6,860 nt of DNA from a virus. The notes under the pieces were generated by a model. That model saw only the letters and a list, made by a program, of their open reading frames with translations, had not been told where the DNA came from and did not search any database. This document shows, piece after piece, positions 1,289 through 3,611 of the stretch (within the stretch, counting starts at the first letter, position 1; every line of letters begins with the position of its first letter). The position numbers and the translations under genes are program-made. The stretch is from positions 1 through 6,860 of the IMG/VR virus record IMGVR_UViG_3300022693_002873; one strand, written 5' to 3'.

Positions 1289-1332
1289 GAGAGTCCACAT
1301 ACTTTAATAGTGGACTCTTGGCCGAAATTCGG
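1289..1332 (+). other. Plus-strand (viral-strand) replication origin core: f1/M13-type gpII nick hairpin plus adjacent palindrome
   Basis: GAGTCCAC ATA CTTTAATAGTGGACTCTTG (1291-1320) compares with f1 GAGTCCAC GTT CTTTAATAGTGGACTCTTG at 28/30 identity. The stem is 1290-1298/1310-1318. The predicted nick is CTTT^AATAG, between 1305 and 1306. A palindrome CCGAAATTCGG follows at 1322-1332. Confidence 0.85.
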
Positions 1333-1334
1333 AT

Positions 1335-1676
1335 TTATTTTTCAAATTGCCTCGATAGTAATTTTGTTTGATATTTGAATGCTACGCTTTCAATCATCAT
1401 TATTATCGATTCTTTTTCCTTTTCTCCCAGCTGTTTAATAAGACCTATTTTACTTATTAATCTTTCATCTATATCAGTTTCCTGATCACTTATTATTTCT
1501 TGTGGGCTCATACCGTAAAATTTGGCCAGCTTTTCTATTGTGCTTAGTTGTGGCGACTGAGTTCCTTTTTCATATTTTATATATGTTGTTTTAGTAGTCC
1601 CTATCGCTTTTGCAACATCTTCTTGGGTAAGATTTCTAGCCAATCTCAATGACTTTATTTTTTCTTCAAACATCAC
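1335..1676 (-). CDS. XRE/Cro-CI-family helix-turn-helix transcriptional repressor (RstR-like position and orientation)
   Basis: The N-terminus is a typical HTH_3 domain: IKSLRLARNLTQEDVAKAIGTTKTTYIKYEKGTQSPQLSTIEKLAKFYGMSPQEI. It is the only minus-strand gene and is divergent from gene II. The track start at 1676 is GTG; the ATG at 1673 is the next codon and equally possible. The stop TAA lies at 1337-1335. Confidence 0.88.
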   Translation of the reverse strand: MMFEEKIKSLRLARNLTQEDVAKAIGTTKTTYIKYEKGTQSPQLSTIEKLAKFYGMSPQEIISDQETDIDERLISKIGLIKQLGEKEKESIIMMIESVAFKYQTKLLSRQFEK

Positions 1677-1735
1677 TTTGCTTCTTTAGGGTTAAATTAA
1701 TAGTCATTATAAGTAGTGTTTTTTTATCCAGTATC

Positions 1736-1772
1736 TTGAAAGTAAAATTATTTTATCCTATATTGGCAATAT
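1736..1772 (+). promoter_or_regulatory. Candidate sigma70 promoter for gene II, with a 13-bp palindrome (candidate operator) over the -10
   Basis: The -35 is TTGAAA (1736-1741), followed by a 17-nt spacer and the -10 TATATT (1759-1764). The palindrome ATATTG-g-CAATAT (1760-1772) overlaps the -10 and the predicted start site. This lies in the 119-nt divergent region between the repressor gene and gene II. Confidence 0.45.
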
Positions 1773-1795
1773 TATTTAACTTGACAGTTTTTCCG

Positions 1796-3106
1796 ATGAT
1801 AGACCTCTTAAGGATTAAGATACCTTTTCACGAATCAGTTGTAGCTGCTTCTCCAGATGGAGCAAGTGGTTTAATTGATTTGCGAGAGTGTCAAAAAAGA
1901 GGTTGTAAGATGGAAGCGGGTGACGTGATTTTTACACCTAACGATTATCGATTAGATAGTGAAAATATCTGCTTGGCCGAAGTGTCTGCTTTGCGTCACC
2001 CTTACGAATCACTCCCAAGCTCTTGGGCTAACCTTGCTTTCAAAGTGAGAGCAGGGGGCAGCAACTACTATCCACACATAGAACTAAAAGCTAGTCCTGC
2101 AAAATTACTTCAAGGTCATAACGTATTTGGCACATGTGATGTGATGCTATGTATTGATGCACTTATTACCACATTTGAATATGCACTCCCTAAAATGGGT
2201 GAAATTCTTGAGTACCACAACGCAGAACTAGCACAAATCGATTGCACATTTAGCGCTCACTTGTCGACCGAGTCAGATAGTCGGAACGTAATTCACGCAT
2301 TACGCAACATATCTAATGGTCAAACGAGGGGCGCTAAATCTGCATTTGATACGACCGCTTATTTCGGTAAGGGGTCACGACATAAACGTTTAAAAGCGTA
2401 CTTAAAACAGTTTGAGCTACAAGATCAAACCAATAAAGCACAAGCAAAATTCGACAAAACTAAAGACCAAATTTTCAAACGTCAGCTTGATTCAATGACA
2501 GCACCAGAAGTACAACAGTTTGCTAAAAATGCACTTCGTTTCGAAGCTAGTGTAATGCCTCGCATGTTAAACCGTTTAGGCATACCTACTAATCTTTGGC
2601 TATTCGAAGAATACAGCAGCAATTTTGATGGGTGTTTAATACAAAAGTTATGGGAGCAATCTTGGTCTGACATATTCAAAACGTTCGAGGGTGCAACCAT
2701 GCGTACATACTCAGATGATGAAGTTCAGGCTCAACTAAAAGAGCATTATAAAAAAGTTACATACTCACGTGATAAGGTCACTGATATTGTCATGGAAAAA
2801 GTTTCATACGCTAAGGCTAACCGCCTTTTCCGCTTTTTCCGTTTACTTAAACATGAAGGTTGGGAAGAAGTAAAAGCAACTACTCCAAGTTCAACCTTCA
2901 ATGACAATATTAAGTTGATCACCAATGTAGTACCAAAAGCCTACTTACAAAATCTACAAGCAACAGCGTCAAATGTTGTTCCGCTTATTCGTATGGTTAA
3001 CGTTGATTTTTCAAAACAGCACCCGACTGGATGGCAAGAACCTGACCGTTTATCAAATCAAGTTTTACTTAAAGAGAACCAAGGTTTTCTAAGGTTGGTG
3101 TCATGA
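1796..3106 (+). CDS. Gene II-type rolling-circle replication initiator (nickase), 436 aa
   Basis: Several blocks match f1/M13 gpII as I remember it. MIDLLRIKIPF matches MIDMLVLRLPF. HPYESLPSSWANLAFKV matches HPFESLPTRYSGIAFKI. IELKASPAKLLQGHNVFG matches VEIKASPAKVLQGHNVFG. IDCTFSAH matches IDATFSAR. LRNISNGQT matches LRNVSNGQT. RFEASV matches RFEARI. NVVPLIRMVNVDFS matches NVVPLVRFINVDFS. The start at ATG 1796 is chosen by this homology, although it has no clear SD. The track ORF start at 1649 adds 49 codons over the repressor start and promoter region. ATG 1910 (AAGAGG 7 nt upstream) is a less likely alternative. Confidence 0.92.
   Translation: MIDLLRIKIPFHESVVAASPDGASGLIDLRECQKRGCKMEAGDVIFTPNDYRLDSENICLAEVSALRHPYESLPSSWANLAFKVRAGGSNYYPHIELKASPAKLLQGHNVFGTCDVMLCIDALITTFEYALPKMGEILEYHNAELAQIDCTFSAHLSTESDSRNVIHALRNISNGQTRGAKSAFDTTAYFGKGSRHKRLKAYLKQFELQDQTNKAQAKFDKTKDQIFKRQLDSMTAPEVQQFAKNALRFEASVMPRMLNRLGIPTNLWLFEEYSSNFDGCLIQKLWEQSWSDIFKTFEGATMRTYSDDEVQAQLKEHYKKVTYSRDKVTDIVMEKVSYAKANRLFRFFRLLKHEGWEEVKATTPSSTFNDNIKLITNVVPKAYLQNLQATASNVVPLIRMVNVDFSKQHPTGWQEPDRLSNQVLLKENQGFLRLVS
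2699..3106 (+). CDS. Gene X-like nested protein (in-frame internal start in gene II, C-terminal 135 aa)
   Basis: ATG 2699 is in frame with gene II and is preceded by GAGGG (2687-2691) at a 7-nt spacing. FEGATMRTYSDDEV aligns with f1 FEGDSMNIYDDSAV, where the Met is the gene X start. Confidence 0.55.
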   Translation: MRTYSDDEVQAQLKEHYKKVTYSRDKVTDIVMEKVSYAKANRLFRFFRLLKHEGWEEVKATTPSSTFNDNIKLITNVVPKAYLQNLQATASNVVPLIRMVNVDFSKQHPTGWQEPDRLSNQVLLKENQGFLRLVS

Positions 3107-3315
3107 ACCCATTAATTATTACATCAATATTCTTTGGTTACGTGCTTTTGGCATGTAGCTACACCCTAGAATCAATAGCATGTTTTTCTATTGCTATCGT
3201 CGCTTATTCATTCGATAGATTCATTGAATACGCAAAACTTCAACTACGCACAAATCAATTTACTGACGGCCAACGTGCCGCGATTGATGACTACAACAAG
3301 GAATCAGACAAATGA
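3103..3315 (+). CDS. Hypothetical small membrane protein (70 aa, two predicted TM helices)
   Basis: ATGA overlaps occur at both ends: with the gene II stop at 3103-3106 and with the gene V-like start at 3312-3315. AAGG lies 8 nt upstream. The hydrophobic segments are LIITSIFFGYVLLACSY and IACFSIAIVAYSF, followed by a polar C-terminus. I do not recognise a family. Confidence 0.6.
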   Translation: MNPLIITSIFFGYVLLACSYTLESIACFSIAIVAYSFDRFIEYAKLQLRTNQFTDGQRAAIDDYNKESDK

Positions 3316-3611
3316 GAATCCAAATTATCGATACAAACGGCGCACACATTCCAACGCCAAGAACTTTCCCAGCTAAAGGTGATAAACCAGCTCGTACTGT
3401 TTATGAACAGAAAGCTTATGCACATATGGGTGGTGTTTTTCCTGTGGAATTTAAAATCACACATGATGACCACAATGATGCATATCAAGTCGGTGAATAT
3501 GAATTAGCACCATCTAGTTTCAAGGTTAACCAATACGGACAACTTGAGTTAGATCGTTTTGGCTTACAACTAATTCCTGCATCTAATGTACTAGATAAAA
3601 AGGCAAGTTAA
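3312..3611 (+). CDS. Gene V-type ssDNA-binding protein (99 aa)
   Basis: AGGA lies 9 nt upstream. FPVEFKITHDDHNDAYQVGEYELAPSSFKVNQYGQLELDRFGLQLIP aligns with f1 gpV YPVLVKITLDEGQPAYAPGLYTVHLSSFKVGQFGSLMIDRLRLVP. The size and the position after gene II also fit. Confidence 0.87.
   Translation: MRIQIIDTNGAHIPTPRTFPAKGDKPARTVYEQKAYAHMGGVFPVEFKITHDDHNDAYQVGEYELAPSSFKVNQYGQLELDRFGLQLIPASNVLDKKAS

Follow-up and report, generated by a model that had tools for sequence, protein, structure and literature searches.

What is the history of a filamentous phage whose replication genes resemble those of f1 and M13 (the Ff phages) and whose remaining genes do not? The question is raised by a stretch of viral DNA of 6,860 nucleotides (nt), positions 1 to 6,860 of IMG/VR record IMGVR_UViG_3300022693_002873, which was analysed in full and is referred to below as the window. 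It carries an origin with a nick hairpin, the rolling-circle initiator gene II (gII, product pII), the nested gene X (gX, product pX) and gene V (gV, product pV) for a single-stranded DNA (ssDNA)-binding protein, together with a repressor on the opposite strand and a set of morphogenesis genes. The original prediction, made from the letters alone, saw here an Ff replication module in an otherwise temperate phage lacking a secretin, and took a lysogeny cassette to have been inserted into that module or recombined next to it. The reading that we prefer, and to which we would give a probability of roughly 0.8, is that the window is a temperate inovirus with a replicon of the II/X family, that it is a patchwork made by recombination among co-resident marine inoviruses, and that its RstR-type cassette occupies a conserved slot.

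A complete circular genome

Because the two ends of the window are the same over 144 bp, it closes into a complete circular genome of 6716 bp, in which the only minus-strand gene encodes an HTH_3 repressor and all remaining genes run rightward (Table 1). A megablast search with the whole window against the phage collection returned no record with similar DNA, and protein-level searches were therefore used instead. In Pseudoalteromonas shioyasakiensis JCM 18891, two contigs with host flanks have a gene for the identical gII product at their ends, and the same phage is found at ~99% identity over positions 845-4315 in an IMG/VR contig and in Logan contigs of other runs. The window is a complete temperate inovirus, a filamentous prophage of P. 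shioyasakiensis.

A patchwork could in principle be made by an assembler rather than by recombination, and a chimera of at least two co-resident filamentous phages deserves consideration given that tandem and multiple inovirus prophages occur in Pseudoalteromonas strains and that 500-bp stretches in common between them, at 97% identity, could lead an assembler astray. However, the JCM 18891, IMG/VR and Logan contigs all have the same gene order and the same junctions, and the 144-bp overlap closes the window into a circle, so that we regard a chimera as extremely improbable. Since the architecture recurs in an NCBI genome as well as in IMG/VR and Logan contigs, the arrangement is not an assembly artefact.

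Segments with different nearest relatives

The nearest relatives of the window change from gene to gene. For pII and pV they lie in prophages of Pseudoalteromonas sp. CF6-2 and in related contigs (90-91% identity for pII, 90-93% for pII and pV overall); for the major coat protein pVIII (84%) and the assembly protein pI (49%) the relative is the Alteromonas phage phiAFP1; and for the repressor it is a group of RstR-type proteins of Vibrionaceae. Two sets of genomes proved useful for mapping these changes on the DNA. The first, type F, comprises CF6-2-type Pseudoalteromonas prophages and contigs (CF6-2 and L015) that have a 65-amino-acid (aa) minus-strand regulator, a 74-aa coat protein and a 449-aa Zot; their structural genes and regulator are unrelated to those of the window. 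The second, type A, comprises the Pseudoalteromonas contigs L024, L026 and L031, with phiAFP1-like morphogenesis.

Against type F, the stretch from the phage attachment site (attP) to the nick hairpin, which we call segment B, is 97-98% identical in DNA, the N-terminal part of gII is 94-95% identical, its C-terminal part 96-98%, and gV 84-89%, whereas no similarity to type F is detectable over 1319-1795 or from 3622 around the circle to ~815. The breaks thus lie at ~816-845, 1318/1319, 1795/1796 and 3621. The second of these is 1-2 bases 3' of the right arm of the nick hairpin and the third coincides with the gII start codon. The original prediction that the genome is a mosaic is borne out by this stepwise identity and by the differing nearest relatives, and the breakpoints that it had suggested looking for near 1335 and 3611 were found close by, at 1318/1319 and 3621; protein-level comparisons agree with the DNA segment matrix. 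There is also a change within gII itself: relative to CF6-2, pII is 99% identical over aa 1-305, 52% over aa 306-382 and 100% over aa 383-436.

Type A gives a different picture, as its members resemble the window at ~74-80% of DNA positions in morphogenesis and replication genes alike, which argues that type-A morphogenesis and this replicon clade are an old pairing. In segment B, L024 and L031 match over 21-37% of the length at 74-78%, and L026 over the full length at 67%. A third lineage, represented by L115, is 83% identical in DNA to the regulatory cassette (segment C), which has no DNA similarity to type F or type A, and shows a lesser resemblance in the gX patch, 65% at the protein level; the long patches most similar to that of the window are those of L115 (65%) and P0009 (66%). 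The Pseudoalteromonas pII clade as a whole occurs together with four or more types of morphogenesis module, among them one that encodes a secretin and whose pI and pVI are Ff-like.

Might all modules nevertheless have descended vertically, with structural genes simply evolving faster than replication genes? The even ~75-80% similarity of type A across both kinds of gene is what such a history would give, and inovirus structural proteins are known for their quick divergence. It would, however, have to explain how type F can be 94-98% identical in DNA over 846-1318 and gII and yet have no detectable protein similarity in the coat protein, pIII, pVI and pI, with proteins of different size (coat 74 as against 44 aa, Zot 449 as against 384 aa), how identity can change abruptly, within a few bases, at 1318/1319 and at 1795/1796, and how it can go from 99% to 52% and back to 100% within gII. 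We therefore consider purely vertical descent very improbable. The pattern in the aligned sequences is that of a recent exchange between the window and type-F lineages, involving the attP-to-nick segment and most of gII-ORF70-gV, and the exchange partners are other marine inoviruses.

The window offers a clean natural case of module exchange among filamentous phages, mapped in fine detail. Its breakpoints coincide with functional landmarks, namely the dif core and the nick site as well as the start codon of gII and the stop codon of gV.

Table 1. Features of the window, in order along the circle; coordinates are those of the window.
Feature	Coordinates	Strand	Basis or remarks
Terminal redundancy, 144 bp	1-144 and 6717-6860		repeat D1, 100% identity
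Non-coding stretch between pI/Zot stop and repressor	760-1334
Imperfect long hairpin, candidate terminator or packaging signal	766-803	+	read from sequence
Segment B, attP through presumed (-) origin to nick hairpin	846-1318	+	97-98% DNA identity to type F
dif-like attP arm 1 (ACTACCCATAA / TTTGAAACGTG / TTATGTTGAGA)	847-877	+	attL/attR junctions
dif-like attP arm 2, in inverse orientation to arm 1	975-1005	-	inverted repeat I1
(+) origin nick hairpin, GAGAGTCCAC-ATACTTTAATA-GTGGACTCT	1290-1318	+	9-bp stem, 11-nt loop
Segment C, immunity/regulatory cassette	1319-1795	.	no DNA similarity to type F or type A; 83% to L115
Short inverted repeat (GCCGAAATTCGG)	1321-1333	+	position of Ff pII-binding repeats
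RstR-family HTH_3 (XRE-type) repressor, 112-113 aa	1335-1676	-	HTH_3, E = 8.8e-18
Divergent control region	1677-1795	.	predicted promoter and direct repeats
Gene II, rolling-circle initiator, 436 aa, II/X family	1796-3106	+	Pfam, BLASTP
Gene X, nested in frame, 135 aa, start Met302	2699-3106	+	alignment, Shine-Dalgarno GAGGGTG
Divergent patch in gII/gX, aa 306-382, 10-aa insertion	2711-2935	+	comparison with CF6-2 pII
ORF70, small hydrophobic accessory protein, 70 aa	3103-3315	+	between gII and gV
Gene V, ssDNA-binding protein, 99 aa	3312-3611	+	PF02303, 61.2 bits (cut-off 25)
ORF88, gVII/gIX position, start of phiAFP1-like (type-A) morphogenesis module	3614-3880	+	homology
Major coat protein, 44 aa, no leader peptide	3914-4048	+	PF25631; 84% to phiAFP1 coat
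pIII-like adsorption protein, collagen-like Gly-X-Y repeats, hypervariable centre	4150-6000	+	homology
pVI-like (Ace-like) minor coat protein, start codon uncertain	5960-6316	+	phrog_306
pI/Zot assembly ATPase, 384 aa	6321-6860, over circle junction to 759	+	homology

A replicon of the II/X family

The replication block belongs to the II/X family, for which 'Ff-type' is the right family label; the label is not evidence of a graft from Ff. The product of gII matches PF05144 with 176.8 bits (cut-off 21.7), PF05155 with 41 bits (cut-off 25) and phrog_702 with E = 5.9e-95, and can be aligned over 95% of its length with the pII proteins of Ff and IKe, at 38% identity (E = 1e-80 to 1e-83). The open reading frame (ORF) extends mechanically to a start at 1649, which is spurious; the gene begins at the ATG at 1796 (MIDLLRIKIPF; MIDMLVLRLPF in M13). 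In alignments with M13 and IKe the predicted start of gX, Met302 (position 2699), falls exactly on their pX methionine, and a GAGGGTG sequence stands 8 nt upstream of it.

The origin lies 5' of gII on the same strand and has the organisation of the family, a hairpin whose loop and right arm contain T[TC]TAA[TC][AG]GT and, after it, an inverted repeat. As ssDNA the hairpin is computed to fold at -11.1 kcal/mol (z = -4.5), and the 19-base sequence CTTTAATAGTGGACTCTTG is found in M13/f1 with 0 mismatches and in IKe with 1; the nick presumably falls within CTTT^AATA, by analogy with f1/Ff. The inverted repeat that follows differs in sequence among lineages and is the first element 3' of the 1318/1319 breakpoint.

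With the Ff and IKe module the window therefore has in common the families PF05144, PF05155 and PF02303, the nested pX methionine, and the hairpin and inverted repeat in the same place relative to gII. It differs from Ff in the length of pX (135 aa, 111 aa in M13), in having ORF70, a repressor in the gap and integration at dif, and in lacking a secretin. The likeness in initiator, nested gX start, ssDNA-binding protein and nick hairpin that the original prediction had noticed is real, but it had described the match as holding block for block, and in that it overlooked ORF70, which stands between gII and gV and has no counterpart in Ff. ORF70 is 94% identical in L010 and L015, while CF6-2 keeps only its last 23 codons as a remnant; searches against Pfam and phrog families gave no match for it.

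Is there a specific affinity to Ff, as would be expected if a temperate phage of other descent had received an Ff-like ori/gII/gX/gV block as a graft, and a lysogeny cassette had entered what was once a non-coding spacer? A scan of IMG/VR with a pII alignment gave 362 stretches encoding a relative, of which the best 80 loci were kept, and most of the loci fetched lack a secretin. Ff and IKe are indeed the best named matches of pII, at 38%, the nick-site core is the same as that of f1 over 19 bases, and the spacer of Ff has no gene. However, pII is 37-42% identical to every other II/X lineage, whether Ff, IKe, Dulem52, Pseudomonas phage 42-1 or several metagenomic groups, and in the pII tree the marine clade and the M13 + IKe pair each have 100% bootstrap support whereas the grouping of the marine clade as sister to Ff/IKe has 2.5%. 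The origin core, too, is no mark of Ff, since the hairpin, T[TC]TAA[TC][AG]GT and a variable inverted repeat are kept across lineages with only 35-40% pII identity. As for pV, it resembles its counterparts in phiAFP1 (36%) and in Xanthomonas phages (38%) about as closely as that of Ff (~40-42%, over a shorter stretch). An Ff replication module in a non-Ff phage thus stands as to family, and as to the rest of the genome being unlike Ff, but not as to a particular relationship with Ff: the prediction turned on gII and gV being more similar to Ff than to other inoviruses, and pII is about equally distant from all of them. Together with the survey of the origin-gII gap described below, this makes a graft quite unlikely.

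Two more remote initiators behave differently in the searches. The initiator of phiAFP1 is a II/X member by Pfam and shows no BLASTP similarity to the pII of the window, and that of I2-2 is 27% identical over half the length, with an intergenic region in which the origin motif was not found.

According to these comparisons, an origin and initiator of the M13 type are not confined to Ff, and make up the replicon of many temperate inoviruses, mostly without secretin, of marine and other bacteria.

The 52%-identical patch of gII/gX (aa 306-382) was considered as one half of a specificity pair, co-varying with the inverted repeat that follows the nick site. The window, L026 and L028 have a CCG[GA]ATTTCGG-like core in common, which would favour such a pairing, but L033 combines a CF6-2-type patch with that repeat and L029 a partly window-like patch with a CF6-2-like repeat, and as stated the idea is not supported.

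Two side observations concern the origin region. Between attP and the nick hairpin, at 1014-1095, five copies of a TACGTA palindromic core (mostly TTACGTAA) lie within ~80 nt; they could be the (-) origin or a binding array for a host factor, and TACGTA-like motifs are also present in L026. In L029, L017 and L024 the 3' half of the origin, which comprises the nick sequence, the inverted repeat and what lies between them, is present in tandem copies (~4 copies of a 32-nt unit at 2130-2250 in L029; 2 copies at 7569-7620 in L017 and at 7626-7680 in L024), which might be the result of the initiator starting or terminating aberrantly.

A regulator slot between origin and gII

The original prediction had placed an opposite-strand helix-turn-helix (HTH) repressor and its control region between the origin and gII, where we find them, and had explained them as a lysogeny cassette inserted into the non-coding gap of an Ff-like module. 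The second point does not survive a survey of the region from nick hairpin to gII in 44 non-redundant configurations (L002-L109) whose gII is of the Ff family. In 41 of the 44, IKe included, this gap contains an ORF of 53-124 aa on the minus strand, which is missing only in M13 and one other group; Ff is the exception. The distance from nick to gII is 300-590 nt in almost all non-Ff lineages. By BLASTP the gap ORFs fall into a family of 24 that we call 'reg65', a second small family of 9, 4 HTH_3 proteins, a pair (L101 and L102) and two singletons (L100 and L106), that is, at least three unrelated families. The HTH_3 proteins are those of the window phage (represented by the near-identical prophage copy L011), L029, L096 and L107, and on the pII tree the HTH regulators occupy positions apart from one another. 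For 'reg65' the sequences suggest a ribbon-helix-helix fold, although the best PDB profile match (E = 0.31) and two weak Pfam matches to RHH_3 (E = 0.05) are not significant.

The IKe genome (L003, NC_002014) is instructive here, as its minus strand holds, at 6604-6798 and thus in the gap from (+) origin to gII, an intact, unannotated 65-aa ORF (MNTLGKRGSRTTVTINRHMQNLLVTATVEATKRAGLPIKKSELINYLIKHKLEEAIEGVLKERGL). Identity is 80% to the regulator of L069, a metagenomic phage resembling IKe, with differences by codon position of 11, 7 and 24, a third-position bias, and 38% to the CF6-2 regulator. Phage PEar1 has only a 23-aa regulator remnant, and remnants were looked for in M13 and not found. 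Since M13 and IKe are sisters, with 100% support, and the outgroups have the gene, loss in Ff is simpler than insertion in the window, which is a further argument against a graft. And since the rest of the Pseudoalteromonas clade, with the exception of L115, has a small regulator, the window is best described as a case of cassette replacement: its RstR-type repressor would have replaced the usual small regulator, and Ff would represent loss.

The repressor itself is 56% identical to an Aliivibrio fischeri ES114 protein annotated 'rstR', which lies upstream of Rep_trans and RstB genes, and 56-63% identical to Vibrionaceae RstR-type proteins. RstR-type homologues (L112, L113 and L114; 50-63% identical) stand divergently upstream of Phage_CRI, of Rep_trans and RstB, and of Phage_GPA, and because the same divergent position is thus occupied beside three unrelated initiator families, the repressor of the window appears to be a mobile immunity cassette. 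In the control region, a predicted sigma-70-like gII promoter (-35 TTGAAA from 1736, -10 TATATT to 1764; 10/12 matches) is flanked or overlapped by two 24-nt direct repeats, 1711-1734 and 1740-1763, which are candidate operators.

The M13 intergenic region, the classical cloning site, corresponds to a slot that in nature is filled by immunity genes. A second practical point is that pipelines for annotation should search for the nick hairpin, which is conserved, and beside gII for a small regulator gene in divergent orientation. This regulator slot and the overlooked IKe ORF are perhaps more interesting than the mosaic from which the analysis set out.

Integration at dif

The dif-like sites that had been read from the sequence are present as an inverted pair at 847-877 and 975-1005. 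Prophage junctions in two genomes, P. shioyasakiensis and strain CF6-2, place the crossover at ~853/854, attL (the left junction) being ACTTCCTATAA then TTTGAAACGTGTTATGTTGAGA and attR (the right junction) ACCCATAA then TTTATATTATGTTAAAT, and show an XerC-side exchange between the host dif and the phage site at 847-877. The attP region (840-1012) folds at -40 kcal/mol (z = -6.05), with its arms pairing in the (+) single strand as a forked hairpin; it is thus predicted to form a forked XerCD substrate of the CTXphi type, with the host dif as the integration site. Lysogeny of this kind is a further departure from Ff, which has a non-coding spacer and an episomal life, as the window has its repressor and is found as a prophage at dif.

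Relatives are found as tandem prophage arrays. Pseudoalteromonas sp. T1lg65 (CP196837, CP196838; L018-L025) carries a related inovirus that encodes a secretin; chromosome 1 has at least six copies of it in tandem, at a spacing of ~6.8 kb, and the 984-kb second replicon has one more.

A model for function and for the origin of the patchwork

By analogy with Ff, pII would act on the replicative form, nick the hairpin in its conserved loop, prime rolling-circle synthesis and re-ligate the displaced strand, and pX and pV would tip the balance to accumulation of single strands. The RstR-type repressor most likely would silence the predicted gII promoter and hence the whole rightward string of genes, which would keep the phage quiet after its integration by host XerCD at dif through a CTXphi-like forked ssDNA attP.

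As to how the genome was put together, its backbone would be phiAFP1-like (type-A) morphogenesis; the stretch from attP to the nick and most of gII-ORF70-gV would have been recently in common with prophages of unrelated morphogenesis; and the regulatory cassette and the gX patch would have come from a third lineage. A tentative explanation for segment B, modelled on CTXphi, is that it may represent the contribution of the downstream prophage when rolling-circle replication crosses a tandem pair, as its bounds, the dif core on one side and the nick site on the other, are the pattern expected for rolling-circle hybrids of tandem heterologous prophages.

Several points weigh against this account or limit it. 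The homology at the left end of segment B starts ~8-37 nt before the crossover point, an offset that may be the conserved XerC-binding arm. The tandem-prophage mechanism accounts for segment B only, and the junctions at the gII ATG, at the gX patch and at the end of gV need further homologous or illegitimate exchanges. The direction of transfer is a separate matter, in that the window lineage could be the donor of the gII-gV block and not its recipient. The pII tree is a bootstrapped neighbour-joining tree with a simple distance correction, and not a maximum likelihood tree. Finally, the function of the repressor, its operators, the promoter, nicking and the expression of gX are all things that we infer.

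Going beyond the window, one could propose that the origin-gII gap has been a slot for exchangeable regulators since the ancestor of the whole Ff-type replicon family, that M13 branched off from temperate ancestors and is derived in lacking a regulator and in not integrating, and that initiator-driven replication of tandem prophages is a routine generator of mosaics. The last idea is suggested by the observation that the slot is bounded by the nick site and segment B by the dif core and the nick site, as if mosaics were regularly made by replication across heterologous tandem prophages. We offer this wider proposal with some hesitation, and would place the odds slightly against it.

Comparison with known systems

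Phages that join a replicon of the Ff family with a divergent HTH repressor, and that lack a secretin, are already in public records, for example Pseudomonas phage 42-1 (OR621020). This phage, L096 and L107 resemble the window in having, in this order, the nick hairpin, a divergent HTH_3 gene, an Ff-family gII, a gp5-like gene, coat genes and Zot, and no secretin; they differ in host and morphogenesis genes, and identity is about 35% in pII and 31% in the repressor.

Module exchange has precedents as well. Stassen et al. reportedly described an exchange of gII-gV between I2-2 and IKe in 1992, under the heading of 'module evolution of the filamentous phage genome'. UPphi901 and Ypfphi are >85% identical in gII and gV and <20% identical in the rest, integrate at dif as tandem repeats, and have extra genes in the region that is intergenic in M13 (PMC7307601). 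As in the window, genes II and V move in these phages as one unit; hosts and sequences are different, and the window is finer-grained, since attP-to-nick, cassette, gX patch and gV each have their own history.

Variation of the rstR cassette and integration at dif are standard CTXphi biology. CTXphi and the window both have a divergent repressor of the RstR family, tandem prophage arrays, and a cassette that is replaced between otherwise similar phages. They also agree in two inverted dif-like sites that form a forked hairpin, with a first strand exchange on the XerC side (PMC4246890), and the same source, citing Davis & Waldor 2000, gives rolling-circle replication from tandem prophages as the route of CTXphi production (PMC4246890). 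The initiator of the window is II/X, however, and not RstA (Rep_trans, PF02486), and the window has neither an RstB-like ORF nor toxin genes. Current understanding, in which gII-gV module exchange and the swapping of rstR-type cassettes are established, stands.

In Alteromonas phage phiAFP1 the genes follow one another as in the window, and upstream of the initiator lies a small regulator in divergent orientation; mosaicism has been noted for it as well (PMC9769780). Closer to the host of the window is Pseudoalteromonas phage f327, described in 2014, with a 74-aa coat protein and a 448-aa Zot (PMC4817708); the genus is the same, but the sizes of coat protein and Zot are not those of the window. 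Strain BSi20439, which is reported to carry f327 orthologues (PMC4817708), encodes a II/X protein that is 78% identical to the pII of the window.

Morphogenesis genes and minor observations

The morphogenesis genes follow those of phiAFP1 in kind and order: ORF88, a 44-aa coat protein, the pIII C-terminal domain, pVI and a pI of ~380 aa. Identity to phiAFP1 is 84% in pVIII, 49% in pI, 38% in pVI, 46% in the C-terminal part of pIII and 46%, over partial length, in ORF88; to the type-A Pseudoalteromonas relatives L024, L026 and L031 it is 76-90%. Morphogenesis is accordingly not Ff-like, with a leaderless 44-aa coat protein and one 88-aa ORF in the place of gVII/gIX, and tblastn of M13 proteins against the window gave no morphogenesis match at E < 0.04. 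The original prediction had correctly read from the letters the short leaderless coat protein, the single 88-aa ORF, the Ace-like pVI, which phrog_306 confirms, and the absence of gene IV: no secretin was found in the window by tblastn with three secretins (best E = 0.32), and there is no spare coding space for one. The candidate terminator or packaging hairpin lies directly 3' of the pI stop, on the morphogenesis side of the boundary and 5' of the stretch shared with CF6-2, in which homology starts at 816-845.

One of the type-F genomes deserves a comment, as L015 (JBLWWH010000047, 6430 bp), a complete Pseudoalteromonas-like inovirus contig, is binned in a Weeksellaceae metagenome-assembled genome; this is probably a binning error and not a signal of host.

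The collagen-like repeats of pIII match PF01391 with E = 1.5e-5, which is below the cut-off. Over 4316-5328, the N-terminal and central parts of the protein, the window has no DNA similarity to the otherwise 99%-identical P. shioyasakiensis prophage, and the two pIII proteins are 46% identical. From these comparisons the receptor-binding part of pIII appears to have been swapped independently.

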